64,000 nt of DNA, taken from contig JASGHU010000001.1 in the NCBI GenBank assembly GCA_047602265.1, positions 2,691,546 through 2,755,545 of the forward strand, read 5' to 3'. Of this stretch, positions 398-52,626 are shown in pieces. The position numbers and the translations under genes were made by a program. How positions within the stretch are numbered: the stretch's first letter is position 1; each line of letters begins with the position of its first letter. This stretch comes from Spongiibacteraceae bacterium (lineage in GTDB: Bacteria; Pseudomonadota; Gammaproteobacteria; Pseudomonadales; CAMLJR01). The notes beneath the pieces were generated by a model. It saw only the letters and a program-made list of their open reading frames with translations. It made no database searches and was not told the origin of the DNA.

Positions 398-1401
398 TAT
401 GCCTCTGTTGCCAGTGGTGCTCGTAGCGTTTGCAACACCTCGTCCTGCGCAAGAAGCTGCATTTCCGCTTTCACTAATGCCACAGCCGATTGCTGATTTT
501 TGTCGAGCTGCGCCTGCAATTGTTGCTTGATTTCATTTAGCGCATGCAGCAATTCGCCTTGTTGTTGCTGTGCGGCTTGTAGTTGCGTTTCCTGTTGCAG
601 CGATTTATCGCGCCACGACATCACTGCATCTTGAGCCGCCTGATAATCGACACGCAAACCGCTGAACTGCTTGTTGAGTGATCCCAATTCCGAGACCAGC
701 CGCGCGTTATCTTTATTGAGTTGCGTAATGTCGTTCTGCTTCACGATCAGCGTTTGTTGTAATTGACGCAACTCAGTTTGAATGTGTTGAAGTTGTTGCT
801 CGTGACGACGCTGTTCTTGATCACGTTGCTCTTTGACTGATTCCCGATAGTGCTCCAACGCTTCGCGTGCGTGCTGGTGTTTTTCTTCGAGCGACTGTCG
901 GTGTTTTTCATTTTCGGCGAGCCGGTCCTGCAAATCGGCAACGTGTTGACGCAGCCGCTGTGATTCGAGTTTTTCCTGTTGCCAGGATTCGCGGTGCTGG
1001 TCGCGCTCAGTGTTCGCGACAGCCAATGCAGCGGCTGTCGTATCGAGCTGTACGCGTGCCGCCTGAAGACTTGATTGCAACGCTTTTTCCTGCTCGACCC
1101 ACTGCACGCGCTGCGCGTCATGATGCTGTTGCGCTTCGGTGACCAGCGCGCCAGCCTCTTCACGTAGCTGTGCCGCTAGTCGAGACACCAACTCTTTGAG
1201 CGTATTGCTAAGTAGTGCTTCATCATCGAGCCGTGTGCCGTGTTCTTGCTCGATTTCGCGCAAATAGCGGTGAATTGTGGACTTGGAGCCCGTATTGCCC
1301 ATCTCGGTACGTATGGCATCGATCGAGGGATTGACTCCCCGTGCCATCAAGGTCTCCCGAGCCTGCAAAACATGAGCTTTATTGATACCCCCGCGCGCCA
1401 T
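397..1401 (-). CDS. kfrA: KfrA-like DNA-binding protein (KfrA_N-type HTH N-terminus plus a long Q/E/L-rich coiled coil)
   Basis: The N-terminus INKAHVLQARETLMARGVNPSIDAIRTEMGNTGSKSTIHRYLREIE resembles the plasmid KfrA N-terminal domain. The remaining ~270 aa are heptad-like and Q/E/R/L rich. Confidence 0.65.
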   Translation of the reverse strand: MARGGINKAHVLQARETLMARGVNPSIDAIRTEMGNTGSKSTIHRYLREIEQEHGTRLDDEALLSNTLKELVSRLAAQLREEAGALVTEAQQHHDAQRVQWVEQEKALQSSLQAARVQLDTTAAALAVANTERDQHRESWQQEKLESQRLRQHVADLQDRLAENEKHRQSLEEKHQHAREALEHYRESVKEQRDQEQRRHEQQLQHIQTELRQLQQTLIVKQNDITQLNKDNARLVSELGSLNKQFSGLRVDYQAAQDAVMSWRDKSLQQETQLQAAQQQQGELLHALNEIKQQLQAQLDKNQQSAVALVKAEMQLLAQDEVLQTLRAPLATEA

Positions 1402-1426
1402 ATGAAGCTCCTATTATTTCGTACCG

Positions 1427-1452
1427 TATTACGTAATATGTATATACATATT
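1427..1452. promoter_or_regulatory. Two overlapping perfect palindromes (TATTACGTAATA; AATATGTATATACATATT) 26-51 nt upstream of the kfrA-like start. Candidate autoregulatory operator.
   Basis: Palindromes read directly from the sequence. The operator function is inferred. Confidence 0.35.
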
Positions 1453-1658
1453 ATTTTTAGAGTCTTATGTCAAGAAATAAGATGGGTTAAGACGCGGGAT
1501 AATGCGGGATTACCCCGTGATAGATATTTTTTCGTCTCCAACTCTCCCCATTTCGGTACATTTTCCTCATTCCCCCTTGAAGTGTGCGATACCGCACCCA
1601 TTACGGTTCTTGGATAGATATTAACCACCATTAATAAAGTGATCTTGGGGAGAACCAC

Positions 1659-2825
1659 ATGTTTGCGGACTTGAAGGGGCCTTCATTCGTCTTTTGGCCG
1701 GTGGGTTGTGGCGACAGCACTACCATTGCTATTTCCGATAACGAAAACGTACAAATCGATCTCAACGACAGCCTCATGGCGGAAGATGACGATAACGAGA
1801 AAATTCCATTGGTTGACGAATTGGTCGCTAAGCTCCCTCAGCGAAATGGCAGACCATATCTATCCTGCTTCGTCCTCACGCATCCCGATCTGGATCACTG
1901 CAAAGGGTTTGAGGATCTGCTCAAGCGCGTCACCATCGGCGAGCTATGGCATACGCCACGCGTATTTCGCGAATATCACAAGGACATGTGTGCCGATGCC
2001 ATTGCTTTTAGAAAAGAAGCGAAGCGCCGTGTAAAAGAATCGATTAAAGCCGGTGGCGACCCCGGTGCCGGAAATCGCGTTCGCGTGGTTGGCTACGACG
2101 ATTTATTGCAAGAGGATGACTATCGCGGATTTCCTCGAGCATTCTTTACTATCCCGGGGCAATCCATTACCACGTTGGATGGTTTAAATGTCGCTGATCG
2201 CTTTAAAGCGTTCGTGCATGCACCCTTTAAAAATGACTCCGCCGAACAGCGCAACGAAACGAGTCTAGCGCTGCAAATTGTGATCGGTGGCGATGCATCG
2301 CCCATGGCCGGTTTGTTCTTTGGGGATTTAGCTTATCCAACCTTGCGCCGCGTTTTTGATGAGTCAAAAAATAGCGGCAATCTGGATAAGCTCAATTGGC
2401 ATGTATTGCTCGCACCGCATCACTGTTCGAAAAAAGTGATGTACGAAAAAGATGCTGAGGGCAACGATATCCTTAAGCAGGATATTTTAGATGACTTCAG
2501 CAGGCGCCAATATCGCGGCGGCTTTATCGTATCGTCTTCTTCTGCGATACCCGCGTCGAATTCGCCCGGCGATAATCCACCCCATGCTAAGGCAAAAAAT
2601 CGTTATCAAGAAATCGTTTCAGGCGATTTCCTGTGTACCGGTGAATACAGCACTTCGAAAAATATGCGTCCCATCATCTTCACTGTGACCAATGCAGGCG
2701 TGGAGTTGGTGAATAAAAATTACCCGCTTTCCGAAGAGTCTAAAGCCGATTTAGCCAAAGCGGTCGCTATAGCGCGTGGCACAAATACACCACCCAATAC
2801 TAAAGTGGGATTTGGTCAAAAGTGA
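1659..2825 (+). CDS. Metallo-beta-lactamase-fold hydrolase, ComEC/Rec2-like subtype (MBL-1)
   Basis: WPVGCGDSTTI strand, then THPDLDH (nt 1881-1898) and a later APHHCS motif, which is typical of ComEC-type MBL domains. The stop overlaps the next gene start (GTGA, 2822-2825). Confidence 0.7.
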   Translation: MFADLKGPSFVFWPVGCGDSTTIAISDNENVQIDLNDSLMAEDDDNEKIPLVDELVAKLPQRNGRPYLSCFVLTHPDLDHCKGFEDLLKRVTIGELWHTPRVFREYHKDMCADAIAFRKEAKRRVKESIKAGGDPGAGNRVRVVGYDDLLQEDDYRGFPRAFFTIPGQSITTLDGLNVADRFKAFVHAPFKNDSAEQRNETSLALQIVIGGDASPMAGLFFGDLAYPTLRRVFDESKNSGNLDKLNWHVLLAPHHCSKKVMYEKDAEGNDILKQDILDDFSRRQYRGGFIVSSSSAIPASNSPGDNPPHAKAKNRYQEIVSGDFLCTGEYSTSKNMRPIIFTVTNAGVELVNKNYPLSEESKADLAKAVAIARGTNTPPNTKVGFGQK

Positions 2826-5059
2826 TATCGAGCGGCCAAGCGTGGGCGTTCGAACAACTTGAAGAAATTGCCGCTGAATCGACTGGCACTTTAGAAATTG
2901 TTGAGCGCGTGGAGAACGAAAACGGATATTTAAAAATATCCGTTTCCATCGACTGCCGTCACTATGCATGGGCTGAAGGCGGTATTCGCTTCAGGCCACG
3001 CGAACGCTTTACGATTTTCATTCCATCATTATTTCCATTAGAGATACCCGAGCTTAGTTTTTCTCACAATGACTATGCGGATTTCCCGCACGTCCAATGG
3101 AGACGTTCAATTTGTCTTTATCAATCGAAAGAAACTGAGTGGCAGCCAGATGATGGAATGTTCGGCTTTATGCAACGCGTGCACGATTGGCTTACCGCCG
3201 GTGCAACTAATCAGCTTGAGCCCATCGGTCTGCCGCTGCATCCTCCCGTTGCTTATCCGCAAGAGTCAACTATTGCCGTCGTACCGACGCAAAATACACC
3301 CACGCCACAACCGCCTTGGTGGACCGGTTATGCAAAAATCGAAAGAGAAAATGATGATTGCATTGAGTTAGGTGAATGGCTGGAGTCCAATCAAGTTGCC
3401 ATAGGCACTCGCGTTGCTCCAGCTATTTTGCTTCCTCACGAGATGCCGTACGAATATCCCACGACCGTTGCAGCGCTAAAGACCGTATTAGAAAGCCGCG
3501 GCATCTCGATAGAAGTTGTTCGCTTACTTCTTTGCTGCGGCGCGCTCCACAATACGGAGAACAAAGCGCTTATTTTTCTATTAGGCGCGGCCATGCGAGG
3601 TATAGCCGGTGGTGAACGTCGTCAGCATCTCGCTGCATGGCAAATCAAACAAGAGCACGCACTAGAATTGCGAACAGCCGTGCTCGCTGCAACAAAAGAA
3701 AATCCAGTTGATGAGCAACTGTTTCGAGAATGGACCGAGCGAGCCACGATTAATTGGTGCTCAGTATTAGAAGATCGGCCAGAAATAGTTATCCAGCGTG
3801 ATACGGGTACACCTGCGCAATTCTGGCGCGGGAAACACGTCGCGATACTCGGTTGCGGTGCTATCGGCAGCACGCTCGCGATGCTCTTAGCCCGAGCAGG
3901 CGTTGGCAAACTTCAACTTTACGATAAGGCCTTGGTAAAGCCCGGTCTTCTCGTTCGGCAATTATTCGATAGATATCAAATCGGTTACGGAAAAGCTCGC
4001 GCAACGCGCATCAATGCCCGTTATATAAACCCGAAGATTGACGTTACTGCTCATCACAAAAATATTCTCAACTTATTAAGCAGTGAAGAATCGCTAAAAA
4101 CATTATTTGAGGCAGACATTATTATTGATGCAACCGCGTCGTCTCGCATCACGGGTGCGCTGGAATTTAATTTGCGCGATCGGTTACACAGCTATCCCCC
4201 CATTTTATCGATGGCCATTGGTCACAAAGCGGATATGGGTTTAATGACGTTGGCACAGAGTGATATCGCCGGCGTTGCATACGATCTTGATCGACGATTG
4301 AAATTAGAGTTCGCGGATTCATTCAATGGTCAACATTTTTTGGATGAGTTCTGGCCCACCAATAATCGAACTCAATTATTTCAACCAGAACCCGGGTGCT
4401 CCGATCCTACGTTTATTGGATCAGCAACCGATGTTACTGTTTTGGTCAGCCGCATGCTCAATGTGGCGAGTGGATGGCTTGCCCAAAATATCAAAGATCG
4501 CGCCTACGGTTTCGGGATGTATTTATCGTCAGCGCCGCACACAACGATTGGCATCCCGCCCGAAGCGGAATATATCTGGGAGCCCGACGATATTTATATC
4601 GATGGATTGCGCGGATATCAGATACGTGTTGCACCATCGGCTAAAGCGACGATGCTGAGTTGGATGCGAAAATCTGAGCGTCGGCGCGGAATGGATTTCG
4701 AGACCGGCGGTATTTTATTCGGTCAGATCAACGATTTTCTCAAAATCATTTGGGTTACTGCGGCTAGTGGCCCACCTCCCGACAGTATTGCGAGTCGCGA
4801 TCGATTCATTTGCGGGACTCGTGGCGTCCCTCAAATGAATACGGAATACGCCACGCGGTCGCGAGGTTCCGTTTCATTTATTGGAATGTGGCATACACAC
4901 CCCGGAAATAAACCCGATCCAAGTGCCGTAGATCGAGAATCAATGGCACAACTTTTCGCAAATCCTAATTTTAAAAGCCGCCACTTTCTGATGCTCATTA
5001 TTGGCGACTCCTCGGATAAGCCATCGTTCGGGGGAAGCCTGTTTGAACGAGAACTTTAA
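2822..5059 (+). CDS. Triple-fusion E2-like / E1-like (ThiF-MoeB adenylation fold) / JAB (JAMM) deubiquitinase-like protein, 745 aa
   Basis: E2-like FPHVQWRRSICLY with candidate catalytic Cys98 (nt 3113-3115). E1 Rossmann GKHVAILGCGAIGS (GxGxxG at nt 3851-3868), IIIDATAS, and EPGCSDP Cys526. JAMM signature E627...H691-T-H-x7-S-x2-D704 (nt 4892-4933). Confidence 0.85.
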   Translation: MISSGQAWAFEQLEEIAAESTGTLEIVERVENENGYLKISVSIDCRHYAWAEGGIRFRPRERFTIFIPSLFPLEIPELSFSHNDYADFPHVQWRRSICLYQSKETEWQPDDGMFGFMQRVHDWLTAGATNQLEPIGLPLHPPVAYPQESTIAVVPTQNTPTPQPPWWTGYAKIERENDDCIELGEWLESNQVAIGTRVAPAILLPHEMPYEYPTTVAALKTVLESRGISIEVVRLLLCCGALHNTENKALIFLLGAAMRGIAGGERRQHLAAWQIKQEHALELRTAVLAATKENPVDEQLFREWTERATINWCSVLEDRPEIVIQRDTGTPAQFWRGKHVAILGCGAIGSTLAMLLARAGVGKLQLYDKALVKPGLLVRQLFDRYQIGYGKARATRINARYINPKIDVTAHHKNILNLLSSEESLKTLFEADIIIDATASSRITGALEFNLRDRLHSYPPILSMAIGHKADMGLMTLAQSDIAGVAYDLDRRLKLEFADSFNGQHFLDEFWPTNNRTQLFQPEPGCSDPTFIGSATDVTVLVSRMLNVASGWLAQNIKDRAYGFGMYLSSAPHTTIGIPPEAEYIWEPDDIYIDGLRGYQIRVAPSAKATMLSWMRKSERRRGMDFETGGILFGQINDFLKIIWVTAASGPPPDSIASRDRFICGTRGVPQMNTEYATRSRGSVSFIGMWHTHPGNKPDPSAVDRESMAQLFANPNFKSRHFLMLIIGDSSDKPSFGGSLFEREL

Positions 5060-6239
5060 CGTTAGCAGCCCATCTCTCGGGCTTGCATTGTCAGGCGGTG
5101 GTTCACGTGCCATGGCTTTTCATCTTGGTTGTCTGCGCGCACTCCATGACATGAAGCTTTTAGACAAAGTGAATGTAGTCTCAACAGTCTCTGGTGGCAG
5201 TGTCATTGGTGCCTGTTTGGCCTACTGGGATTGCGATTTTGCAGAATTTGATCGGCGTATCGTTCAATTGTTGCGCAAAGGATTCAATGGCTCCATTGCA
5301 CGCTCTGTATTTTTCAGCCGTGAAACTCTCAAAATTCTGGCAACGATTTTGTGTACTGCATTACCAACCCCTGTAATCGGTTTTACACGAATCGCATTGA
5401 GATTAATTCGCTTTGTTACTCGATTACCGACGACTGCAATCGAACGGTGGCTTGCACAACTGTCGCGTTCATTACCAATCTGGGGCAGTTTAACCACGGC
5501 GTTTGAACATGCACTGCGTAAAACGGTTTTTGACAATGCTGCGTTGGTGGATGTTAAACGGCCTGGACTAGAAGTCATTATCAATGCCTGCGATTTAAGA
5601 ACAGGCACTGCTTTCCGATTTGGTTCACGCGTGTCTGGTGGTTGGCGATATGGACGCGTCCTCAACAATGATATTTCAGTAGCTAAGGCGGTTGCCGCAT
5701 CGGCCGCATTTCCTCTTTTACTGGCACCGCTTATTGAGAATTTTCGCTTCGAAAAAAATGGAATTGAAACCGAAGAAAAAGTGATTCTTACAGATGGCGG
5801 CGTATTTGAAAATCTCGGTGTAGCTGTTCTTGAGCCAGGTAGAAATTCCGATATCAGCGTAAATAATTTCGCAGCAACTCATATCATTAGTCTCAATGCC
5901 GGCGCAGGACAAATGAGTGGCGACACCAGTCCATTTTGGTGGTTGAGTCGCGTAGCGCAATCTTTCGAGATCGTTCATCGCAAAGTGCAGGATGCTACGT
6001 ACGCGCGGTTACATCAATTTATTAAAAGTGGTGTATTAAAAGGATTTGGCATGGTTTATTTAGGCCAGATCGATGCCAGTTTGCCTTACGCGCCAGCTGA
6101 TCTCGTTAAGCGAGAAACAGTAAAAGATTACCCGACGAATTTCTCGGCTATGTCGCAAAAAGATTTGGATAATCTTGCGTTAAGAGGAGAACAGCTTACA
6201 CAAATTATCGTTGGCCGCTATTTGTCAGCAGTTCTATAG
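5001..6239 (+). CDS. Patatin-like phospholipase (start uncertain; an in-frame TTG at 5043 would still overlap the upstream stop)
   Basis: Oxyanion loop LSGGGSRA, nucleophile elbow TVSGGS (Ser64, nt 5190-5192) and catalytic Asp motif LTDGGVFENLG (Asp at nt 5793-5795). Confidence 0.85.
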   Translation: MATPRISHRSGEACLNENFNVSSPSLGLALSGGGSRAMAFHLGCLRALHDMKLLDKVNVVSTVSGGSVIGACLAYWDCDFAEFDRRIVQLLRKGFNGSIARSVFFSRETLKILATILCTALPTPVIGFTRIALRLIRFVTRLPTTAIERWLAQLSRSLPIWGSLTTAFEHALRKTVFDNAALVDVKRPGLEVIINACDLRTGTAFRFGSRVSGGWRYGRVLNNDISVAKAVAASAAFPLLLAPLIENFRFEKNGIETEEKVILTDGGVFENLGVAVLEPGRNSDISVNNFAATHIISLNAGAGQMSGDTSPFWWLSRVAQSFEIVHRKVQDATYARLHQFIKSGVLKGFGMVYLGQIDASLPYAPADLVKRETVKDYPTNFSAMSQKDLDNLALRGEQLTQIIVGRYLSAVL

Positions 6240-6278
6240 GAAAAAAATTAATCTAATACTAAGTGAAGGAGCATTATC

Positions 6279-7223
6279 TTGACTGTTCAATCGATCGATA
6301 CCCGATTTCGGGCCTATCAACTCGGTTCCGCTGGCTCTTCGTATTCGTATTTCAGTGATGGTAGGTTTGTTCTTATTGAAGGACGTTACTGTGAGAATGA
6401 ACAAAGTATCCGACAAGAGTTAAGAATATGCGGGCTTGAACGAATCAACACTTTACATATTACCTCTTGGGACCAGGACCATTGTTCACCGTCTCAAGTA
6501 AAGCGAATCCTTGAGGATCTGAAGCCTAGCAAAATTGAGTATCCGGGTTATGAGCCACATACTGATTGTGGCAAAGAAAGCTTGAAAATTATCAAAGCGT
6601 ATCAGGCTAGTAGTTCCAGGCCTCAAGTTATCGCGGTGACTCCAGAATACATCGAGAGTTTGAAGGCCGCGTCCAGTTACGGCTATCGAAACATCATGTA
6701 CTGGCCTAAAGAAATTGATACAGAAAATGCGAATAATAATTCCACGGTGAAGCAGTTTCGAAGCGGAAGCTTCAATGTCCTCAGTTTGGGTGATGTTGAA
6801 TCGACGCAAATTTCATCATACCTCAGAAGAGCGAGCACGATTAATTCTGAGGTCGACGTTATGATCATGGCTCATCATGGTGCTGATAATGGTTTTACAA
6901 CTTCCACGTTTCTGAAAATTGTGAGGCCGACTCTCGCTATTGCTACTTCAAATTATGGAAATCATTTTGATCACCCGAAGCCAGAAATAAGAGAGCTTTT
7001 GCATAAACATGATGTGCATTTATTTACCACCAAAACTGGTGATGTGATTGTGAGGTCTATAGGAAAGCACACAGGTCAGTATGAGGTTATCAATCTCAAA
7101 GCAGGAAGTACGGAAGTCTCAAGCCGTTATGTGGGCAATGCTAGAAAGGGAAAGTATCTAAGCAACAACGAGGACACTTTGCGAGATCGTAGGACAACAC
7201 ACAATAAAGGGCCAAGGCGTTGA
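6279..7223 (+). CDS. Second metallo-beta-lactamase-fold hydrolase, ComEC-like subtype (MBL-2), TTG start
   Basis: HITSWDQDH (nt 6456-6482) and MAHHGADNG motifs. A strong GAAGGAG RBS lies 7 nt before the TTG. By eye, the gene is more AT-rich than its neighbours. Confidence 0.7.
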   Translation: MTVQSIDTRFRAYQLGSAGSSYSYFSDGRFVLIEGRYCENEQSIRQELRICGLERINTLHITSWDQDHCSPSQVKRILEDLKPSKIEYPGYEPHTDCGKESLKIIKAYQASSSRPQVIAVTPEYIESLKAASSYGYRNIMYWPKEIDTENANNNSTVKQFRSGSFNVLSLGDVESTQISSYLRRASTINSEVDVMIMAHHGADNGFTTSTFLKIVRPTLAIATSNYGNHFDHPKPEIRELLHKHDVHLFTTKTGDVIVRSIGKHTGQYEVINLKAGSTEVSSRYVGNARKGKYLSNNEDTLRDRRTTHNKGPRR

Positions 7224-7383
7224 GTTCATTAAAGAGCTAATATTTAACGCCACACCGGCCGTAAGTCGGGCAAAGTGGCCTATCGCTATCTAAGAAGCCT
7301 TATGGTTATTGCGGCAGCTATTCGATTGACGATCTTGCGGAATCGACCGGTTCCGTTAGTATAAAGGCAACCAACGCGCTTTC

Positions 7384-7770
7384 ATGACTATGGCTTATTC
7401 AACGTTCCGTAGATACATCGCTTACTTGTTGCTTGCGCTGCTCCCCTTTCAGGCGGCGGCAGCGAGCCGGTTAGCTTTGTGTGCCCATACGACGAACTCC
7501 TCCCATCCAGCTATGGAGGCAATGGATCATTGCGCGTCCATGGCAGCCGCTTCTGCTTCGGGTTCTAAGACGCAAACACCGTCGCAACCTGCGGGAAAAT
7601 CCTGCTGGCTCGGTTCTATCTGCATAGCCGGTGTTGTCGCAGCTGCGCTCCCCATGAAACAACAGTCCGCGCCGAGCGAGCGCACCGCAATTAGCTATAC
7701 CTCCTCCATACCTGTGCAATACCGCTCCATCATCCTCGACGACCCTCAGCGTCCACCAACAGTTCTCTGA
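7384..7770 (+). CDS. Secreted Cys/His/Met-containing small protein, possibly of the CzcI/DUF2946-like metal-island type
   Basis: Signal-like N-terminus (LLLALLPFQAAAA), then CAHTTNSSHPAMEAMDHC, with a C-terminal ...PQRPP motif. The family assignment is tentative. Confidence 0.4.
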   Translation: MTMAYSTFRRYIAYLLLALLPFQAAAASRLALCAHTTNSSHPAMEAMDHCASMAAASASGSKTQTPSQPAGKSCWLGSICIAGVVAAALPMKQQSAPSERTAISYTSSIPVQYRSIILDDPQRPPTVL

Positions 7771-17241: not shown

Positions 17242-17748
17242 TTAAAAATAAACCCCATGCTGTATTCGCTGCAGCGTTGTCGAAACAAATTCAACACCGG
17301 GCGCCAGCGCCAGTAACTCGATAGGTTTTCGGTAGCGCATCGATCGCGCCTCTGAGCACAACCAAATTTTTGCATTTTCGGGCGTTCCCATAACGCGTTG
17401 CGTGCGCATAAAAACCACGGCCAGTTGCCAAATTGCCGCACTTTGCGCCGACGATAACCGACCTCTGCGATTCGCAGTCAGGCAGCGCCGTTTAAGTGTT
17501 TGTTCCGTGATGGCAAGTGCCGTACTCAGTTCTTGAAATGTAAATCCTGTATGTTTCATCAACGCTCGAATCACCGTATTAGGCAATCCGCGTTTCAATA
17601 GATCGTATAACTCCAGATCCGACGCCAATTTCGGAAGCTGGGACGATATACCTAACAAACTGAGTACAGTGAATAACGATTCCGCGCGCGGATGCTGACA
17701 TTGCGCAATGAGTGCAGCCGCTATTGGAGAATTCAGTGTTGCTGTCAT
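17242..17748 (-). CDS. Xre-like HTH / DUF2384 (MbcA/ParS-type) antitoxin-like protein
   Basis: C-terminal GTPENAKIWL...RKPIELLALAPGVEFVSTTLQRIQHGVYF is the typical toxin-binding DUF2384 signature. The start shares a TGATG overlap with the helicase stop. Confidence 0.75.
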   Translation of the reverse strand: MTATLNSPIAAALIAQCQHPRAESLFTVLSLLGISSQLPKLASDLELYDLLKRGLPNTVIRALMKHTGFTFQELSTALAITEQTLKRRCLTANRRGRLSSAQSAAIWQLAVVFMRTQRVMGTPENAKIWLCSEARSMRYRKPIELLALAPGVEFVSTTLQRIQHGVYF

Positions 17749-19163
17749 TATGTAAGCGTCGGCCTGAAACGCAGCGACAAAATTTCCTGTTTGAATTTGC
17801 CAAACAAATTGATCGTTGAGTCGTACGATTGCGCGAGCGCGGAATACGATGAAGATTCTCGGGGCGGCGTTATTTGATCAGTCGACGGATAAACATCTGC
17901 GTCGATTGTCACGCTCAATGACGTATCTAATGTGGGGGTTGCCGTAGAGGACAGAGGTGTTGTCTCGTTCGGGCGCGGCCGTTTCGGCATGCGTTCGAAT
18001 CGAATAGTATCCATGGCCGGTATGTCGCTGGCGATGCGTTCGGCATATTGCGTCAGTGTCGGCTCCGCGGGCATATACAAATACGCGGTTTCATCGACGT
18101 CGCCGCTGGATCGCAAAATACGTCCCAGGACCTGTCGAAAATACAATTCAGTTTTGACACGCGTTAAATGGCAGCACACGCGCAAACGAGGAATATTTGT
18201 TCCCTCACTGATCATGCCGACAGAAATAATCCATTTTTGCGTACCTGTCTTGAACTCTCTGATGATATGTGTCGCATCATCCTCATAATACGTAGCAATC
18301 AACGCGTTCTCGTTGAGTGTCTTCTTTAACAAACGCGCAATTTGATGCGCATGCGCAACGGAGGCAGCGACAATGAGTCCGCCGGCGTTTGGAATCGTTT
18401 TTCGAAGTTCGTCTAATTTTTTATTGGCCTGACGAACGATATAGCCGATGAGAGCATCGTGTTCGAGTAATTGTTGATACGCGCAGCAGGATTCTTCTAA
18501 CACGGTTTTGATACTGTTAAATTGCCGTGAGCTGAAGCCTTCGTTAACGGTGATATGGTCATTATCGATGACGATGAATTTGGGAATACGGCAGACGCGG
18601 TCTTGAATGGATTGATAAAGCCCGTACTGGTAATCGCAGTGGATTTGCTGCGACTGCGAACAATAACGCGACAACACAATCGGAATACGATCGGAGCGCC
18701 ACGGTGTTCCTGTGAGGGCAAGCGTGCAGGCAGCGCGTCCCTGAATTTCACAAAGAATCTTTTCGCCCCACGCATTGGCAGTCTCTTGCGTGTGACCGGC
18801 GCAGTGATGAATTTCATCGAAAATCACGAACACGCGGTGACGTGAAAACAAGGTCCAAAAACTATCGGCCACACTGAGCATGGCCTGATACGTCATTGTG
18901 CAACCGCGTGAGCCGAGCAAACCATCCATGCGATGATCGGTTTGAATTTCTAATTCGGCGCGAAAATCATCGGCCACGATCACCGACGGCGCGAAACACA
19001 TGACCAGATCGATCATTCCCTCATCGAATAATTGTTTGGCGAGCAACGCCGCCATGCGCGTTTTACCGGCGCCCGGTGTCGCCAGGCAGAGAAAATCGGA
19101 TTGCCCACCTTCATATTGTTGATGCGCCTGTGCGATGCACTCGGCTTGCCAGCGACGAAGCAT
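17748..19163 (-). CDS. Superfamily-2 DEXH helicase (ResIII-like)
   Basis: Motif I ATPGAGKT, motif II DEIHH, motif III LTGTPWR and a C-terminal helicase lobe. The ~70 C-terminal residues are low-complexity. Confidence 0.75.
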   Translation of the reverse strand: MLRRWQAECIAQAHQQYEGGQSDFLCLATPGAGKTRMAALLAKQLFDEGMIDLVMCFAPSVIVADDFRAELEIQTDHRMDGLLGSRGCTMTYQAMLSVADSFWTLFSRHRVFVIFDEIHHCAGHTQETANAWGEKILCEIQGRAACTLALTGTPWRSDRIPIVLSRYCSQSQQIHCDYQYGLYQSIQDRVCRIPKFIVIDNDHITVNEGFSSRQFNSIKTVLEESCCAYQQLLEHDALIGYIVRQANKKLDELRKTIPNAGGLIVAASVAHAHQIARLLKKTLNENALIATYYEDDATHIIREFKTGTQKWIISVGMISEGTNIPRLRVCCHLTRVKTELYFRQVLGRILRSSGDVDETAYLYMPAEPTLTQYAERIASDIPAMDTIRFERMPKRPRPNETTPLSSTATPTLDTSLSVTIDADVYPSTDQITPPRESSSYSALAQSYDSTINLFGKFKQEILSLRFRPTLT

Positions 19164-19699
19164 CAGATGTGCTGCGCAGCCAGGTGATTCGAAAGAATCG
19201 ACTCCAATGCTTTGACGCGCCCCAACGTTTTGGAGCAGCGTTCGCGCGCGTCGTTATAGAGCGCTTGCACGGCGTTTTTTAGATGCGGAAGCTGCGTGCA
19301 AATGGCATCGTATTCTTCCGTTTCCCCGATCACGCTCAGCATTTCCTCTTTGTAGCTGTGCAATTTTTCTCTCAAACAACGCAGCGTTGCATCCTCATGC
19401 AAATCCTCATGGCTAGCCCTCGACTGTGGGGAGATCGCCACCGTATCCGTTGGCTCGCTAAGGCGGTAGCGCGCTTTTTCGCCGGGCCGCTCGGCTAAAC
19501 GCCGCAGCAATCCCTGGGTTTCCATGCGCTGGACGTGGCGATACACAAATTGCCAGGCGGCCTTGTCAGTGCGGTGGGGACATCCGGGCAGCGCCATGTA
19601 GGTGCTCTTGAGCTCAGAAACCGTGAAGTCATTCCATCGACCAGCCCCGAGTAAATTCAAAAGTTCTTGGCTGATTTTGCGCTTCTTCATAGTTTTCAA
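19163..19699 (-). CDS. Hypothetical protein, possible winged-helix N-terminus plus coiled-coil C-terminus. First gene of the helicase operon.
   Basis: ORF with a TGATG overlap onto the helicase start. The fold assignment is only a guess from ...WQFVYRHVQRMETQGLLRR... Confidence 0.4.
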   Translation of the reverse strand: MKTMKKRKISQELLNLLGAGRWNDFTVSELKSTYMALPGCPHRTDKAAWQFVYRHVQRMETQGLLRRLAERPGEKARYRLSEPTDTVAISPQSRASHEDLHEDATLRCLREKLHSYKEEMLSVIGETEEYDAICTQLPHLKNAVQALYNDARERCSKTLGRVKALESILSNHLAAQHI

Positions 19700-19803
19700 G
19701 GATTACTTATGCGTTTAGCTAATTTAAAATGGGTACTATATCCCGTGGAGCTATAGCCGGCAAATTGGAATAGTCACTGCTTTCGAGCAAGTGACCATTT
19801 CCC

Positions 19804-20013
19804 ATGGCCCGAAACCCTCTGGTTGAATTCGGCAAACGTGTCCGCGCGATACGTAAAGCGGCCGGCTTCTCCCAAGAAGCGTTGGCAGACTATGCCGATA
19901 TCGATCGCTCCTACCTCGGCGCGATTGAGCGTGGCGAGGTCAATCTCACCCTCATAAAAATCCATCAAATCGCCAAGGCGTTGCGTATCTCACCGAAAGA
20001 GTTTTTCTCCTAA
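19804..20013 (+). CDS. XRE-family helix-turn-helix transcriptional regulator (69 aa)
   Basis: FGKRVRAIRKAAGFSQEALADYADIDRSYLGAIERGEVNLTL is a canonical HTH_3/Cro-C1 motif. Confidence 0.8.
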   Translation: MARNPLVEFGKRVRAIRKAAGFSQEALADYADIDRSYLGAIERGEVNLTLIKIHQIAKALRISPKEFFS

Positions 20014-20089
20014 ATCAGCCCCGTCAGCGCACAGCGTTATTTTTGTGGTTATTTGATACAGTGCCTTTTTCAGGCCCCGGGATCGTCTC

Positions 20090-21088
20090 GTGAACGAACC
20101 TCTGCATGTCGATGACTACATCAGTGCTGCCACTGCTTCCAATACACGGCGCAGTTATCAATCGGCCATCCAACATTTTGAAATGGAGTGGCGCGGATTT
20201 TTACCCGCGACAGCCGACAGCATTGCGCGTTATCTCGCAGCCTATGCACCGACGCTCGCCCTTAACACATTAAAACAACGACTGGCAGCATTGGCGCAGT
20301 GGCATATCGAGCAGGGTTTTCCCGACCCCACCAAAGCCCCACTGGTTAAGAAAACCTTGAAAGGAATTCAGGCGCTGCATCCAGAACCCATTAAGCGAGC
20401 GAAGCCTTTCCAATTAAACCAATTGGATCATCTGGTGGCCTGGCTCGATCAGCGCATCGCTCTGGCAAGTAGCGCCGAACAACGTCCAACGCGATTAAAA
20501 GCCGCGCGCGATAAAGCGTTGGTATTGATTGGGTTCTGGCGAGGTTTTCGTAGCGATGAACTCGGGAGTTTGCGCGTAGAACATATCACCGCCATTCCTG
20601 ATGAAGGCATGACGCTGTTCGTGCCGTCAACGAAAACAGAGCGCAGCGGTTACGGCGCAACTTTTAAAACGCCAGCGTTATCGCGATTGTGTCCCGTCAC
20701 GGCGTATGCCCAATGGATTGCACTGAGTGAGTTATCGGAAGGACCTGTTTTCCGTCGCATCGATCGGTGGGGAAATATTGGCGATGAGGGCTTGCATCCG
20801 AATAGTTTTATTCCACTGCTGCGAGAATTATTTCGCATCGCAGGTATCGATGATCCCACGAGCTACAGCAGTCATTCGCTACGCCGCGGTTTTGCCACAT
20901 GGGCCAATGCCAATGGTTGGGATATTAAAACATTGATGGAGTACGTCGGCTGGAAAGACGTGCAATCGGCGATGCGCTATATCGATGTTGGCGATGCATT
21001 TGTACGTCAACGCATCGAACAGGCAATACTCCCGTCAATGCGACCACCGATAACGCAGCAGATTGAAGACGACCACACGCATAAATAA
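20090..21088 (+). CDS. Tyrosine site-specific recombinase/integrase
   Basis: SAM-like N-domain, then a catalytic domain with ...RGFRSDELGSL..., HSLRRGFATWA and ...GWKDVQSAMRYI (the R..HxxR..Y pattern). Confidence 0.85.
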   Translation: MNEPLHVDDYISAATASNTRRSYQSAIQHFEMEWRGFLPATADSIARYLAAYAPTLALNTLKQRLAALAQWHIEQGFPDPTKAPLVKKTLKGIQALHPEPIKRAKPFQLNQLDHLVAWLDQRIALASSAEQRPTRLKAARDKALVLIGFWRGFRSDELGSLRVEHITAIPDEGMTLFVPSTKTERSGYGATFKTPALSRLCPVTAYAQWIALSELSEGPVFRRIDRWGNIGDEGLHPNSFIPLLRELFRIAGIDDPTSYSSHSLRRGFATWANANGWDIKTLMEYVGWKDVQSAMRYIDVGDAFVRQRIEQAILPSMRPPITQQIEDDHTHK

Positions 21089-21118
21089 TTTTTTACGAAC
21101 ACTCAAATAATCGACGGC

Positions 21119-22207
21119 ATGAATATGAGTGAAGAGCTATTGGAAGGCGCTATCTGGTTGCCCGATTTTCCCTTTGAGGATTTGTGCGCAGTCAGCGAGT
21201 TACTGAAAACGGCGGATGTTTTCGTTCCGGGCTATATTCCTCCCGATCGCGGCGTCTACGATTTAGAAGAATTTCTTTATCGTCATATGATCGAGCAAGC
21301 AACCACCATTTTATTGCCCGATCGCAATATCGTTTCGAGAATCGCCCAGGTTGTTCAAGGCGAAGCAATGGATTCGCAGCGAAGGCTTGCGTGTGCGGTG
21401 TTGGCATTTGCTCAAGGTCTTGAGATCGACATCGAACCATCGATTGCTTATCACGAACTCGCGCATAAAAACGATAATGCGACGGCTCATATCGAACTCG
21501 GATGGTTTCGTCGCGGCGATGATTCCGTGTGCACACCCTGGCTCGATGCAGCGCTGGGGCGTAGCGATCGAGTACCACTTTCGCAAAATCCGGTATCGAG
21601 CGACTCTCTCGATTTAGCGCTGCCGTTAAAGCGTTGGCGGCGCAATTATATTGTCGCCCTAAAAATTGCCGCACTCGAATTGAGCGGCGCTCCCGCGTTA
21701 GAAAAAATGGTGAAATTGCTGGAATGGATGCGCGATGATTTTATTTTGGCGGGACCAGCGACGATGTTGGCAGCCGTGTATTTCGCGCCCATGTCGCCCC
21801 CGCGCAAGGGGCTGTTTAAACAACTGCGATCTTCCGATCGCGAACGTGCCATAGCAGGTGTGAGGAATGTGGCATGGGACATTACGCATTTGAGTGATTT
21901 TGTCGCTCGCGTTCAGAACGCATCCCATGACGAAGTACGTTATCTATTTGCCTCGTTCGATCATGGATTATGTACAGTCGCGAGGCTGCTGGTCTCGGAT
22001 AGTGAAAATATCGACGATTATTTGCTGCAGCAATTATCGCCGTGGTGGCCTGATAGCAATGTCGTCGTATTAGTCGAGCATATTGCGAGTGCGTTCAATA
22101 TTCAGCGGGATGCCGCATGGTTTCAGCGACAGCAATCCGATGTTAATAAAATCGATCAATTGATTGCCGAAGGGGAAGCTTTGATTCGCGAAACCACTTA
22201 CGCATAA
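21119..22207 (+). CDS. Hypothetical protein (362 aa)
   Basis: Long ORF with coding-like composition. No motif recognised. Confidence 0.45.
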   Translation: MNMSEELLEGAIWLPDFPFEDLCAVSELLKTADVFVPGYIPPDRGVYDLEEFLYRHMIEQATTILLPDRNIVSRIAQVVQGEAMDSQRRLACAVLAFAQGLEIDIEPSIAYHELAHKNDNATAHIELGWFRRGDDSVCTPWLDAALGRSDRVPLSQNPVSSDSLDLALPLKRWRRNYIVALKIAALELSGAPALEKMVKLLEWMRDDFILAGPATMLAAVYFAPMSPPRKGLFKQLRSSDRERAIAGVRNVAWDITHLSDFVARVQNASHDEVRYLFASFDHGLCTVARLLVSDSENIDDYLLQQLSPWWPDSNVVVLVEHIASAFNIQRDAAWFQRQQSDVNKIDQLIAEGEALIRETTYA

Positions 22208-22241
22208 AGGCAATTGAAATCGCGATAACATTCAATGAATG

Positions 22242-22751
22242 TTACGAACGTTGAATCGGCGTTGCATTCAACAATTGGTCGAGGCGACTTTCGACACGTT
22301 TTTTTAAAGAAGCATCCGCTTGAATGGCCTGCAAGAATCGCTGAGTAGCGCTGCCGAAATCTCTTATTAATACCGCCACACTGATCAACACTAAATCGCC
22401 GCCATCATGTTGGTGAGGACCGTTATCCACGTAGCCAAACTTTTTGGGCGCTGGCACTTTCTTGTGCAGATCTGCCAATGTTGCGAATGTATGGAGTACC
22501 GCGCAGCGCGCGGCGTACAGATCTTTCCCCACGTATTGGTAAGGCTGCTCATCCTCCGTTTTGAGGTAGGTATCCACCCATTCATAAAAATCATTCCGGG
22601 TTTGTCGATCGCGCTCAAGCGGTAGCGATAACCACGCGAACGTATCAATGCCGATATACACCATCGACAGCGCAGCAACCGTAGCGCCGACATCGTAGGC
22701 CGTGGAGATTTCGTTGACCAGATCCTGGATGGGTTTATAGCTCATCGTCAT
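22242..22751 (-). CDS. Hypothetical protein (start moved to the ATG after the GAGGGA RBS; the upstream extension overlaps regulatory repeats)
   Basis: ORF only. No motif recognised. Confidence 0.45.
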   Translation of the reverse strand: MTMSYKPIQDLVNEISTAYDVGATVAALSMVYIGIDTFAWLSLPLERDRQTRNDFYEWVDTYLKTEDEQPYQYVGKDLYAARCAVLHTFATLADLHKKVPAPKKFGYVDNGPHQHDGGDLVLISVAVLIRDFGSATQRFLQAIQADASLKKRVESRLDQLLNATPIQRS

Positions 22752-22776
22752 AACATCCCTCATGCACCTCTGGAAT

Positions 22777-22929
22777 ATCGTACGTTTAAAAATGGTACCG
22801 TAGGCAATCGGTGCCAAACGTACGATAATCCAACAAAGCGCTTAATCTGACCAATTAGATAAATTTTGGGAATAAAAAATGGATTATTTATATTCAATAA
22901 TTCAATTTTCTGGATCGTACGATCCAGAA
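22777..22929. promoter_or_regulatory. Divergent promoter region with three occurrences of an ATCGTACG core: inverted arms ATCGTACGTTT (22777-22787) and AAACGTACGAT (22816-22826), plus the perfect 22-bp palindrome TTCTGGATCGTACGATCCAGAA (22908-22929)
   Basis: Read directly from the sequence. The palindrome ends 18 nt before the sprT-like start. Confidence 0.5.
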
Positions 22930-22947
22930 TTGGTTATTCATTAATCA

Positions 22948-23781
22948 ATGAAAAAACCAACCGAAGTTTTGTACGGTCGGTTTCAAGAGGCCTATGACTT
23001 CTTCAACGACCGTTTATTTGAAAACAAGCTACCCGCTTGCGTGATCACGTTTCAGCGTCAAAAGCGCATTATGGGGTACGTATCGCTGGAGCGCTGGATC
23101 AATCAGCAGCAGGAGTATACCCACGAGTTGGCGATTAACCCAGAATACTTCGCGAATTACCCCCTGGTCGAAATCTGCCAAACCCTCTGCCATGAAATGG
23201 TCCACATCTGGCAAGCCCAATTCGGCAATGCCGGCCGGCGCGGTTATCACAACCGGCAGTGGGCGAACAAAATGATGGTCATCGGCCTCATGCCTTCCAC
23301 GACGGGCGAGCCCGGCGGTGACATTGTCGGTGAGCATGTGGGGGATTACATTCTTAATGATGGGCCTTTCATCAGGGCTTTTAATGAGCTGGCCTCGTCG
23401 GGATTTCATCTGGCCTGGATGGACCGCTATCCCGTCGTGCGAGAGGAAACCACGACTGTCATTTATACTCAGTCAGGAAAACCCGTCGAGCTCGATACCA
23501 AGGCACCTGCAGCCGCCAGTATGTTGATGGAGCGGCGCTCGGAACATTCCACGACACAATTGCCGTATTCGTTTGAAGAGCTAGATGCGGCGTTTACCTC
23601 TGCTTTTACGCCGCAATTGCTGCCGCCTGCACAGGTGGGCAGTGTGCCCACCACACGACCAAAAATATCCAGCAACAAACACAAATACCGCTGTCCGAAA
23701 TGCCATCTGCAGCTATGGGGAAAACCCGAGCTTTACGTTATTTGTGGCGAGTGCAATGCCGCGCTGGTCGAAAGCGAATAA
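22948..23781 (+). CDS. SprT-like zinc metalloprotease domain protein with a C-terminal zinc ribbon
   Basis: N-terminal SprT-like region with HEMVH (HExxH). C-terminal CPKC...CGEC ribbon. Confidence 0.8.
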   Translation: MKKPTEVLYGRFQEAYDFFNDRLFENKLPACVITFQRQKRIMGYVSLERWINQQQEYTHELAINPEYFANYPLVEICQTLCHEMVHIWQAQFGNAGRRGYHNRQWANKMMVIGLMPSTTGEPGGDIVGEHVGDYILNDGPFIRAFNELASSGFHLAWMDRYPVVREETTTVIYTQSGKPVELDTKAPAAASMLMERRSEHSTTQLPYSFEELDAAFTSAFTPQLLPPAQVGSVPTTRPKISSNKHKYRCPKCHLQLWGKPELYVICGECNAALVESE

Positions 23782-23782
23782 C

Positions 23783-26700
23783 CTATGTGCCGAGAATTTC
23801 CCGTAATAGGTCTTGAAGGTCCAGCCGCTTGCCGTCGAATGAAAAGGTATAGCTCCCATTGAAATTGATGTGCGTCCACGCCACGGGTGAACAGTGTTTC
23901 ATTTCTTCAAGCTTTACCAATTGATTGGTGCGTTCGAAACCTTGAACCAACAGCGACAAAATGCTCGAATTGAAATAGATCACACAGTTCGCAATTAAGC
24001 GACTGCATTCGTACCACAGCGAAATTTCCGCATCGGAATTACCACGAAATTGACTGCCATTCACTTCTTCGATGCGACGTAACAGCGCATGGTAGGACTC
24101 ACCACGGTTCAATGCGCGTTGCACATAACCACGAACACTGCTGTCATCGATAAAATCCAACAGATAAATGCATTTGATTAGTCGATCGTATTCGGCCAGT
24201 GCTTTGAATGGATTACTTTTGGCTTTGAAACGCGACATTTTGCGCACGAGATTGGCTTGCGATACCTCCTGACTATGTAAGCTGACCATGACCTGCTGAA
24301 TGAATGCCCAATTTTTCTCAATCAGGTCGTAGTTGATGGGTTTCAGTAAGGTCACCTCGCAACCATTCTCACTCTCTGTGTAGCCGAATAGACTCGCCAG
24401 AATTTTGCCCGGCCGTTTATACCGGGGAGCAAACTCCCAGCCGTGACAGTCCAAGATGGCGAAATTAAATTGATTCGCGCCATGCGTATCGGTCGAGATC
24501 ACATCGGGTTTAATCTCGGACGTATTGTTATAGAGCACGTCAAATAAATAATGCGATTCATGCGTGTACGGTTTCATGATCTCGGCATTGACGGGCACAT
24601 GGTTGGCACACAACGACACGGCCGACAGGCCTTTACCGCGCCCGAAATATTTTGAGGAGTAATGGGTACTGATAGTGTTGTAGCGGCTTTCGAAACGCTG
24701 GCCGTCAAAGCTTGCGTGCAGCACATTTTCTTGAATGTTGTAGTACTTAAAGATTTCCAATTGGGAGATGGCGTTGCTGATGACATCGTTAGCGGCATGA
24801 ATGGTTTCACCGCGCAGGTGATTTTTTTCTGCTTGCCGCAACTCATCGTAGGGAAGATTGCAAAGCGTCGCCATATGATGCGTACCGTAGCGCGTGCCAT
24901 TGGCGACGATACAGGCAATGATGGCGTTCAAATTGGATGGCGGTTTGCGCAGGCGAATATGGGTCAGCTGGGATGAGAAGTTAAGATTTCTTTCCGCAAA
25001 GGCAATAATGTCGCCAATGTGAAGCTGCTTAATTTGACTGTAGAAATCCTCGGATTTATCAACCTCATCCTTGGCGCGACGTTTGATAGTCCATTTTATT
25101 TTCCCGTTATTTTCAGTAAAAATCACGGAAGAGTTTTCGCCCGCACCGAGACGTGCTCCCACAGCCTTTCTTTTCTTCTCCAGCACCGCTTTTTTCTCAG
25201 CGAGTATTTCATTGATTGGCCGCTTTAGTGTTATGTAATTGCTCATCGCGACGAGCTCAGGAACATCCTCAGCCAGTACAAAATCATCTTCGTACCACTT
25301 ATACGATAAGCTGTCCTCAACATAAAATTTCAAGTCTTCAAGCCGGTCCTTGATGCGGATATACATCAACACTTCGGCGCGGATGAGATTGACGCCGCCA
25401 TCGCTGTCATCGGCATCGAATAATAAATAGGGTTTCAACTGCGGTTTAATGAGGCGAGCATCGAAATTCTGCATCTTTCCCGACGTTATCATTTCCTCTT
25501 TGGAGAGACGAACCTGGCGCAACAGCGGTTGAGCTGATTCATCGCGGGAATCGAATGTATGGCAGAGAAATAATTTTCGCAGTATGGTTTTTATGCGGCT
25601 GTGTTTCGCCTCGTAAAATTCCCATTGAAACTCTTTGTGGTCGGTTTTTATGCCGGCGATAAACTTGCTGACGCCAGGCATTTGGTCCTTGGGTAGAATT
25701 TCATAAGCTTTTTTCTGGGCAACAGAAAAAGCTGTCCTCCCTTTAATTTTTCCATCGTAGAAAATATCGATTAGAGGGCTGGCTTTTTTATATTTCTCAT
25801 CCATGTTTTTGAGTTCATTAAATTGTTTGTCCTTGCCATAGATCTCGGCTTCGTCCTCCAATTTGCGCACATGATAGATAAACCCCTGAATCAAAATATC
25901 GCTGATTTGGAAATAGCGTTGATAGAGAAAGCAGGATAAATACAGCGCAAAAGCGCCTGCGGACAATCTGCGTAATCGTGAAATCGAGTAGTAGGTAACC
26001 AGATATGCAAAATAATCGATGTTCTTTTTGGAGAGGCCAAGCGCTTCTACAGAGGCGCAAATGTTCGGAAATACTTCGCTTATTTTCTCAAAGACCTCAA
26101 TTTCCGCATAAATTTCTTTTTTCTGAAAACTTTTTGGTAGCTTTTTTATTTGCGTAATCAGTGGCTTTTTTTCTTCGGCGTAGGCCATTTGCTTAAGGGT
26201 TTCTACATCGCTATCGCCCAAAAAGAATAATATTTTCTCTTCGAGGGCTCGTTCCTCACTTTGGAGCCCCGCGGAAATTATTTTTTGAAGCGTGCTATAC
26301 GCTGGAATAGCTACCTTTTTCTCTGCTAGGTGATGTATACAGCTATCAAACACCTCGCGTGGTTCGACAATCTGAGCAGAAAGGCGGCGAACGAAATCAG
26401 TAAGCTGATGCTTGGCATCATCATAAATTTCATGGCCGTAAAAACCCAAAATAGAGGCATAGATGCGAGATTTTTGGGTACTGCTCAATTCGGCATGGGT
26501 TAATTTCACCGGGATTTGATACTTATTGCGTATATAGACGAGGTCGGTTTTCACCTCCGCGACGGTTGGATTCAGAACTACCGGCTTATATTTGAAATAA
26601 CCCAGCAGCAGGATACGGTAGGCATTGGTAATAGCGTCATTACGAGGGGAGAAAAGTGCTCGTTCAGCGTCATCTAATTCGAAGAAGAACTCTCGTTCGG

Positions 26701-26788
26701 CATCGGTGAATCGCGGTACGCAATAGAGTTCTTCCACCTCTGAGTTAGTCAGTATCTCAATTCTTTTATCATTGTCTGCCATGGTCAT
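23783..26788 (-). CDS. tnpA: Tn3-family DDE transposase
   Basis: N-terminus MTMADNDKRIEILTNSEVEELYCVPRFTDAEREFFFELDD (DUF4158-type), ~1000 aa, C-terminal DDE_Tn3 region. More AT-rich than the flanks by eye. Confidence 0.9.
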   Translation of the reverse strand: MTMADNDKRIEILTNSEVEELYCVPRFTDAEREFFFELDDAERALFSPRNDAITNAYRILLLGYFKYKPVVLNPTVAEVKTDLVYIRNKYQIPVKLTHAELSSTQKSRIYASILGFYGHEIYDDAKHQLTDFVRRLSAQIVEPREVFDSCIHHLAEKKVAIPAYSTLQKIISAGLQSEERALEEKILFFLGDSDVETLKQMAYAEEKKPLITQIKKLPKSFQKKEIYAEIEVFEKISEVFPNICASVEALGLSKKNIDYFAYLVTYYSISRLRRLSAGAFALYLSCFLYQRYFQISDILIQGFIYHVRKLEDEAEIYGKDKQFNELKNMDEKYKKASPLIDIFYDGKIKGRTAFSVAQKKAYEILPKDQMPGVSKFIAGIKTDHKEFQWEFYEAKHSRIKTILRKLFLCHTFDSRDESAQPLLRQVRLSKEEMITSGKMQNFDARLIKPQLKPYLLFDADDSDGGVNLIRAEVLMYIRIKDRLEDLKFYVEDSLSYKWYEDDFVLAEDVPELVAMSNYITLKRPINEILAEKKAVLEKKRKAVGARLGAGENSSVIFTENNGKIKWTIKRRAKDEVDKSEDFYSQIKQLHIGDIIAFAERNLNFSSQLTHIRLRKPPSNLNAIIACIVANGTRYGTHHMATLCNLPYDELRQAEKNHLRGETIHAANDVISNAISQLEIFKYYNIQENVLHASFDGQRFESRYNTISTHYSSKYFGRGKGLSAVSLCANHVPVNAEIMKPYTHESHYLFDVLYNNTSEIKPDVISTDTHGANQFNFAILDCHGWEFAPRYKRPGKILASLFGYTESENGCEVTLLKPINYDLIEKNWAFIQQVMVSLHSQEVSQANLVRKMSRFKAKSNPFKALAEYDRLIKCIYLLDFIDDSSVRGYVQRALNRGESYHALLRRIEEVNGSQFRGNSDAEISLWYECSRLIANCVIYFNSSILSLLVQGFERTNQLVKLEEMKHCSPVAWTHINFNGSYTFSFDGKRLDLQDLLREILGT

Positions 26789-50793: not shown

Positions 50794-50796
50794 GTT

Positions 50797-51852: not shown

Positions 51853-51866
51853 GCCATCCTCAACCG

Positions 51867-52565: not shown

Positions 52566-52626
52566 TCGATTTGATAAAGCCTTGAATCTCGAAAGCTGCG
52601 AATCAAAAGAATTAGCTTTAGTAAAT

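Follow-up and report, generated by a model that had tools for sequence, protein, structure and literature searches.

A cassette assigned to the 6A-MBL family, probably of a divergent clade with a patatin effector gene, in a Spongiibacteraceae bacterium

6A-MBL systems and the core genes of the cassette

The survey by Iyer, Burroughs and Aravind (2006) describes an operon type, 6a, in which an E2-E1-JAB triple-domain protein is encoded beside a specialised metallo-beta-lactamase (MBL), "usually two genes". Later papers credit van den Berg et al. (2024) with the validation of 6A-MBL in Pseudomonas aeruginosa and count the system among jumbo-phage defences. One of these papers, the preprint PMC11601596 (whose reference 27 is van den Berg et al. 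2024), attributes to "Type II CBASS, Pycsar and MBL pathways" a fused E2-E1 that conjugates the enzyme of each pathway (CBASS, cyclic oligonucleotide-based antiphage signalling system); beyond this single statement we found no 6A-MBL mechanism in the reachable literature. Here we describe a four-gene cassette at positions 1659-7223 of a 64,000-nt stretch of contig JASGHU010000001.1 from a Spongiibacteraceae bacterium. This whole analysed stretch is hereafter called the window. The open reading frame (ORF) list places four genes in the cassette, all on the + strand: MBL-1, an E2-E1-JAB fusion, a patatin-like phospholipase gene and MBL-2. The cassette is almost certainly a member of the 6A-MBL family, and it probably represents a divergent clade in which a patatin gene supplies the effector, joined at this locus by a second ComEC-like MBL. 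Its core, MBL-1 and the fusion, is already known; the variant with patatin and an MBL resembling PDC-M48B, a component of a PADLOC candidate system, has apparently not yet been described.

Both core proteins exceeded the cut-offs of the curated NCBIfam equivalog models for 6A-MBL. MBL-1 (1659-2825, + strand, 388 aa) scored 312.3 bits against NF058524 ('anti-phage 6A-MBL system MBL-fold protein', cut-off 220), and the fusion (2822-5059, + strand, 745 aa) scored 412.2 bits over residues 54-726 against NF058523 ('anti-phage 6A-MBL system cap2_3 protein', cut-off 320). Pfam recognised Prok-E2_A, ThiF and Prok-JAB in the fusion, in that order, with E2 at approximately 2909-3283, E1 at 3827-4501 and JAB at 4604-5023, and the PADLOC E1-E2 (Cap2) model matched it at 237 bits, together with JAB (Cap3) models. 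A sequence search of the PDB with the fusion returned only E1 domains (UBA5, Cap2) and one JAB-type peptidase chain (9ild). In an alignment of 10 fusions with 31-61% identity to the window protein, C98, G344xG346 of the GxGxxG motif, C526 in PEPGCSxPTF, E627, H691xH693, S701 and D704 were invariant (window residue numbering is used throughout).

For comparison we assembled approximately 115 loci, labelled L001 and so on, from stretches of relatives: 13 genome, 80 metagenome, several plasmid and one viral contig encoding relatives of the fusion. Another 15 loci were taken around homologues of MBL-2. Ten fusions of the window's clade scored 286-430 bits on NF058523, a range that did not separate patatin-bearing from patatin-less subclades, and the fusions of L101, L103, L109 and L112 scored 531-651 bits, nearer to the model seed than the window's 412. 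The cassette shares with 6A-MBL an E2-E1-JAB protein directly after a specialised MBL, scores above the curated cut-offs for both proteins, a Gly tail on the MBL and a mobile-element context. It differs from members nearer the model seed in its tail, which is of the VGFG type here and of the APRAG type there; it adds a conserved patatin and a second ComEC-like MBL, and it is without the WYL regulator.

The four genes are tightly packed, each being either translationally coupled to its neighbour or closely spaced from it. As read from the DNA, the GTG start of the fusion (2822-2824) overlaps the TGA stop of MBL-1 (2823-2825) in a GTGA sequence, and the stop of the fusion (5057-5059) is overlapped by either candidate start of the patatin gene (5043-6239, + strand). 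The TTG at 5043, which lies 6 nt after GGGGAA, was the best fit to the N-termini of homologues; the alternative TTG at 5001, from which the longest ORF runs (5001-6239), fitted less well. MBL-2 (6279-7223, + strand, 314 aa) begins with a TTG located 39 nt after the patatin stop and 6 nt after a strong ribosome-binding site, GAAGGAG. In a promoter and terminator scan of 1300-7700, sites were no more frequent than in shuffled sequence, no + strand promoter was found 5' of MBL-1, and no terminator-like site was found between patatin and MBL-2.

A tblastn search of the whole 64-kb window detected no homologue of a CD-NTase, a WYL regulator or PDC-M48A. The window contains no free ORF of the size of a ubiquitin-like protein (Ubl), gaps inside 1659-7223 are at most 39 nt, and small leftover and flanking ORFs had no Pfam match. 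Because the genes are so tightly packed, there is no space in the cassette for an extra Ubl or cyclase gene. The original prediction, made from the letters of the DNA and its ORFs, had described four co-directional, tightly packed genes with the GTGA overlap, an overlapping patatin start and a ribosome-binding site before MBL-2, intact E2, E1 and JAB catalytic signatures, and neither a cyclase nor a Ubl gene; each of these statements was borne out, the last gap being 39 nt and every catalytic residue that it named being invariant among the 10 fusions.

MBL-1 and its C-terminal glycine tail

Pfam gave no match in MBL-1 or MBL-2. The best PDB match that Foldseek found for the AlphaFold model of MBL-1 (pLDDT, predicted local distance difference test, 88.4; pTM, predicted template-modelling (TM) score, 0.90) was the ComEC beta-lactamase-like domain 9ic4 of Moorella glycerini (E 6e-12, target TM 0.70), and the same structure was the best match for the MBL-2 model (pLDDT 81.2; E 8e-14, target TM 0.71). 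Pce esterase came next for both models, and RNase J appeared from rank 7 for MBL-1 and lower for MBL-2. Because each model best matches 9ic4, both proteins are of the ComEC type, as had been proposed from the DNA. Their conserved motifs include the metal sites: in 56 MBL-1 homologues W13, P14, G16, G18 and D19 (WPVGxGD), H75xD77xD79H80, H187, D223 and H254-H255 do not vary, and in MBL-2 the motif S63-W-D65-x-D67-H68 is invariant, with H60, D172, H199-H200 and H232 also kept. MBL-2 additionally gave a partial match to the ComEC model TIGR00361 (51 bits). The public annotation of MBL-1 in the metagenome-assembled genome is 349 aa long and starts 39 residues late (leaving out window 1659-1775), which removes the invariant WPVGxGD that is present in homologues and in the NCBIfam model.

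The C-terminal tail of MBL-1 (2772-2822, + strand; ARGTNTPPNTKVGFG-QK) resembles a handle of the ubiquitin-like kind, which JAB would presumably cleave after Gly386. V383, G384, F385 and G386 were invariant among the 56 homologues, and residues 377-388 were disordered in the AlphaFold model, after the terminal helix. In all 83 readable proteins encoded upstream of a fusion, the C-terminus consists of ARGxxxPPxxxVG[F/Y]G and 0-7 further residues (usually 1-3); four from the VGFG clade stop exactly at the terminal Gly. The gene upstream of the fusion was MBL-1-like in 81 of the 86 loci with enough sequence. At L020-L023 and L076, the place of MBL-1 is taken by another ComEC-type MBL of 307 aa (TIGR00361, 95 bits) in which the tail is still present. 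Coordinates of the swapped genes include L020:6752-7678, L021:3824-4747 and L076:1213-2148, and their tail reads ARGxxxPPxxKVGFG. These sequences indicate that the catalytic domain was exchanged around a fixed conjugation handle.

A second clade of MBLs ends in APRAG plus 0-4 residues overall. APRAG stands at the very end of the protein in L103 and L109 and is extended to APRAG-VSNQ in that of Escherichia coli pAMSC6. To judge from their sequences, these two Gly-ending tail types, with or without a short extension, have the look of a ubiquitin-like precursor. By analogy with the conjugated enzyme of type II CBASS, it is quite likely that MBL-1 is the conjugation substrate and is joined through its Gly tail. 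The tail, whether VGFG or APRAG, survives a domain swap and should be the element that E1 and JAB recognise. When the 49-aa tail by itself served as the query of an exhaustive search, nothing but fragments of MBL-1 homologues and a single chance match to a repeat protein came up, and no new cargo types were seen. In Methylomonas koyamae (L101:7181-10588), MBL-1, E2, E1 and JAB are joined in one 1135-aa polypeptide that both NCBIfam 6A-MBL models match; the C-terminus of its MBL would be internal unless cleaved.

From the precedent of Cap2, Cap3 and cGAS of type II CBASS we infer the following mechanism. JAB would trim Q387-K388, exposing Gly386. E1 would then adenylate Gly386, and MBL-1 would be carried as a thioester on Cys526 and subsequently on Cys98 of E2 before its ligation to a target. 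Conjugation may prime MBL-1, and JAB may also reverse the conjugates, keeping the system quiet. Upon infection the primed MBL-1 would act, and the genes of the downstream slot would kill or arrest the cell (abortive infection), with patatin causing membrane damage and MBL-2 acting on nucleic acid.

The cassette and type II CBASS (CD-NTase, Cap2, Cap3, CapV) have in common a Cap2-like E2-E1, a Cap3-like JAB, a patatin, a variable effector slot and an enzyme with a C-terminus that is conjugated, presumptively so in the cassette. In contrast to type II CBASS, the cassette has no CD-NTase and no known nucleotide signal, its JAB is fused to E2-E1, its putatively conjugated enzyme is a hydrolase and its patatin appears to lie outside the CapV family. 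Bil and Bub likewise share E1, E2 and JAB chemistry and C-terminal Gly processing with the cassette, but they encode a separate ubiquitin-like protein, whereas here the tail is borne by the enzyme and there is no Ubl gene.

Patatin, MBL-2 and the downstream slot

The third gene matched Pfam Patatin PF01734 at 68.9 bits. Its Ser-Asp dyad is intact. Conservation of the SGGGxR oxyanion motif, S64-G-G and D265-G-G is 97% or higher among 67 distinct homologues, in agreement with the original prediction, which had singled out S64 and D265. A match to the PADLOC phospholipase effector reached only E 0.0023, no NCBIfam CBASS model matched, and a PDB sequence search with the protein gave no match; by its sequence, this patatin does not appear to be a member of the CapV family.

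Sequence of 1.3 kb or more beyond the fusion was available for 84 loci, and patatin follows in 73 of these (87%), at one locus after an intervening PDC-M48B MBL. The others have a small membrane protein (5), a calcineurin-like phosphoesterase attached to the C-terminus of the fusion protein (3) or nothing recognisable (3). The figure of 87% describes the window's part of the family and not the whole family, because the metagenome set consists of the best 80 of more than 453 matches. At L064:3285-6761, and also at L065 and L066, the fusion has an extra C-terminal calcineurin-like domain (Pfam Metallophos) where others have the patatin gene, and the enterobacterial plasmid version encodes a 172-aa multi-pass membrane protein beside a divergently transcribed WYL regulator. 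The varying downstream slot points to killing activities besides that of MBL-1. Patatin, in our judgement, is probably an effector of the cassette's 6A-MBL system.

MBL-2, a presumed second effector or accessory protein, connects the cassette to PDC-M48, which pairs a membrane protein (M48A) with a ComEC-like MBL (M48B). It matched PADLOC PDC-M48B weakly (PDLC04675, 31.8 bits, E 2e-8), and an equally weak score was obtained for a 79%-identical homologue paired with a true M48A. The MBL-2 family is large: identity to the window gene runs as high as 88%, and members occur in Methylomonas, Iodobacter, Aquitalea and Aeromonas. Genes of this family are usually preceded by one for an approximately 165-aa multi-pass membrane protein that is PADLOC PDC-M48A (E 1.6e-55). 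Close homologues of MBL-2 thus pair with a genuine PDC-M48A, whereas the window is without one and its MBL-2 matches the M48B models weakly. PDC-M48 pairs of a small multi-pass membrane protein and a ComEC-like MBL were seen in L099, L105, L107, L108, L111 and L113, in settings that include a Mu-like prophage, a P2-like element and a position beside AbiE.

Fourteen independent contexts of the MBL-2 family were compared. Seven of them adjoin a 6A-MBL operon (the window, L019, L020, L101, L103, L109 and L112), and all seven copies without M48A (the window, L019, L020, L103, L109, L110 and L112) adjoin a 6A-MBL fusion or patatin. At L112 the MBL-2-type gene lies 14 nt after the fusion, in the usual position of patatin. 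Strong PDC-M48B genes are also present inside other 6A-MBL loci, L091 (E 1e-91) and L065. MBL-2 follows patatin only in the window's closest relatives, L019 and L020, with a remnant in L001. At L091 (2967-4774 and 6877-12393), a CBASS with a CD-NTase and a CapV-like patatin precedes, by approximately 3 kb, a 6A-MBL operon in which the strong PDC-M48B MBL stands between fusion and patatin. On balance, a functional link between MBL-2 and the cassette is slightly favoured.

Several observations weigh against reading the four genes as one system with patatin and MBL-2 as its effectors. The enterobacterial plasmid versions are without patatin, so patatin is not required for the core to exist, and the metagenome loci, as the best 80 matches, over-represent relatives of the window protein. 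MBL-2 shares 88% identity with genes found in unrelated contexts and only 46-47% with the MBL-2 of L019 and L020, although the other three cassette genes share 69-82% identity with those loci. GC content is 0.49 in MBL-1 and the fusion, 0.45 in patatin and 0.43 in MBL-2, with GC at third codon positions at 0.38-0.41 in patatin and MBL-2; this lower GC across 5043-7223 hints at a separate origin for both downstream genes. Given its identity pattern and its lower GC (0.43 vs 0.49), MBL-2 appears to be a separate acquisition, and its link with 6A-MBL looks like repeated recruitment rather than inheritance. The orientation of MBL-2 relative to the operon also varies among other loci. As to the mechanism, we know of no signal-making enzyme among ComEC-type MBLs.

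The functional unit may therefore comprise three genes only (1659-6239), MBL-2 being an independent defence gene, or a remnant of PDC-M48 minus PDC-M48A, that merely shares the island. Such a separation would fit the lower GC of MBL-2, its much closer relatives elsewhere, its lack of a Gly tail and its absence from at least 90 related loci, as well as the habit of its homologues of following PDC-M48A with no fusion nearby (the six PDC-M48 loci named above). It accommodates less easily the 7 of 14 contexts that adjoin 6A-MBL operons, which is far above chance given so rare a system, or the rule that a 6A-MBL fusion or patatin is always adjacent wherever PDC-M48A is absent. At L112 the gene even occupies the patatin slot, 14 nt after the fusion, and in the window it follows patatin by 39 nt on the same strand with no terminator-like site between them. 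We regard the three-gene unit as possible and the less likely of the two arrangements.

A second alternative concerns the division of labour inside the cassette. MBL-1 could itself be a nuclease effector that is switched on by conjugation, with patatin as a parallel, separately triggered effector and not the target of a signal from MBL-1. The ComEC MBL domain, a proposed DNase, is the nearest structure to MBL-1, with RNase J further down the list, and two-gene versions consisting of MBL and fusion are common on enterobacterial plasmids (257 PLSDB records). Even these plasmid versions, however, have a small multi-pass membrane protein beside the WYL regulator, and the swappable downstream slot resembles the effector slot of signalling systems. 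We consider this arrangement a tentative one, about as doubtful as the three-gene unit.

A more speculative extension of the reading that we prefer, a 6A-MBL system with effectors in its downstream slot, is that 6A-MBL constitutes a cyclase-free, CBASS-like form of signalling. The tail-conjugated ComEC-type hydrolase would either make a hydrolysis-derived signal or directly recruit interchangeable effectors, and PDC-M48B would be shared by two systems. This is improbable on present grounds, somewhat more so than the two alternatives just described. Were it true, the effectors would be patatin, small membrane proteins, a phosphoesterase or PDC-M48B nucleases, and the PDC-M48B module would be controlled by either M48A or the 6A-MBL core. 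The PDC-M48 candidate in any case shares an MBL family with 6A-MBL, which links the two systems, and this link, the tail and the effector slot are useful leads for a family for which we found no published mechanism.

Genomic island, related loci and remaining readings

The first approximately 27 kb of the window form an island, with core genes beyond it. As identified by Pfam on the window proteins, CsrA and KfrA lie upstream of the cassette and a metal-resistance island downstream, which agrees with the mobile-island context first suggested; besides the cassette, the island comprises genes for CsrA, KfrA, MerR, a CDF transporter and an HMA protein, the metal genes czcCBA, and genes for a ResIII helicase, an integrase and a Tn3 transposase. 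The window contains no tRNA gene, and a megablast of 1400-7400 against PLSDB gave no match. Neighbours of the relatives include type I restriction-modification-like ORFs (identified by eye), AbiE, prophages and integrative and conjugative elements (ICEs), and WYL/BrxR-like regulators flank relatives of the 6A-MBL operon.

The cassette shares its island with KfrA, CsrA, integrases and a Tn3 transposase, and its relatives occur on plasmids and ICEs, so it could act for the benefit of the mobile element, by addiction or by exclusion of rival elements, and not in phage defence. We think this unlikely, as the family is reported to be anti-phage, its neighbours are typical defence genes, and just 1 of 2.9 million viral contigs encodes a relative of the fusion. 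The original prediction had also read the cassette as defence-like, and the citation of 6A-MBL as anti-phage in the papers named above supports it in this.

The same prediction held that the cassette was a candidate undescribed system and knew of no functionally characterised system with its composition. A categorically new conflict system is very improbable: the core passes the 6A-MBL equivalog models, the operon type was published in 2006 and its defence role is cited, so that the claim of novelty fails for the core, whose architecture is already catalogued under a defence-system name. The older survey with MBL partners to which the prediction alluded proves to be Iyer et al. (2006), row 6a. 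The claim may still hold for the patatin and the PDC-M48B-like MBL. Our literature search found no paper linking patatin with 6A-MBL, or describing MBL, E2-E1-JAB, patatin and a second MBL together, and neither a conserved patatin nor a PDC-M48B-like MBL is included in the reachable descriptions of 6A-MBL, among which the primary paper does not figure. An MBL-1-like gene upstream and patatin downstream recur among the loci tallied above, and MBL-2 after patatin is confined, outside the window, to L019 and L020.

Patatin is a common CBASS effector and the fusion matches the PADLOC Cap2 and Cap3 models, but descent from a type II CBASS operon by loss of its CD-NTase was rejected as scarcely credible, since 0 of 98 related loci had a CD-NTase inside the operon, an MBL always occupied its position, the sole nearby CD-NTase (L091) belongs to a separate CBASS approximately 3 kb upstream, and the patatin does not look CapV-like. 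The cassette is thus not a deletion derivative of a cyclase system, in keeping with the original prediction.

Within the island, positions 17748-26914 encode a ResIII/helicase protein, a tyrosine recombinase, an SprT-like protein and a Tn3-family transposase. The tyrosine recombinase (20090-21088) was confirmed by Pfam, and the next ORF (21119-22207, 362 aa) had no Pfam match. The island bearing the cassette and the czc metal genes probably has its right-hand side in this segment.

The APRAG-tail clade was found on 257 PLSDB plasmid records, mainly from Klebsiella and Escherichia, and because of this distribution an understanding of the family bears on phage therapy for these hosts. Examples are L115 (E. 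coli pAMSC6, 49636-53042) and L116 (K. pneumoniae pKpn-431cz); the genes of these plasmids are still annotated as 'hypothetical' or 'ThiF family'.

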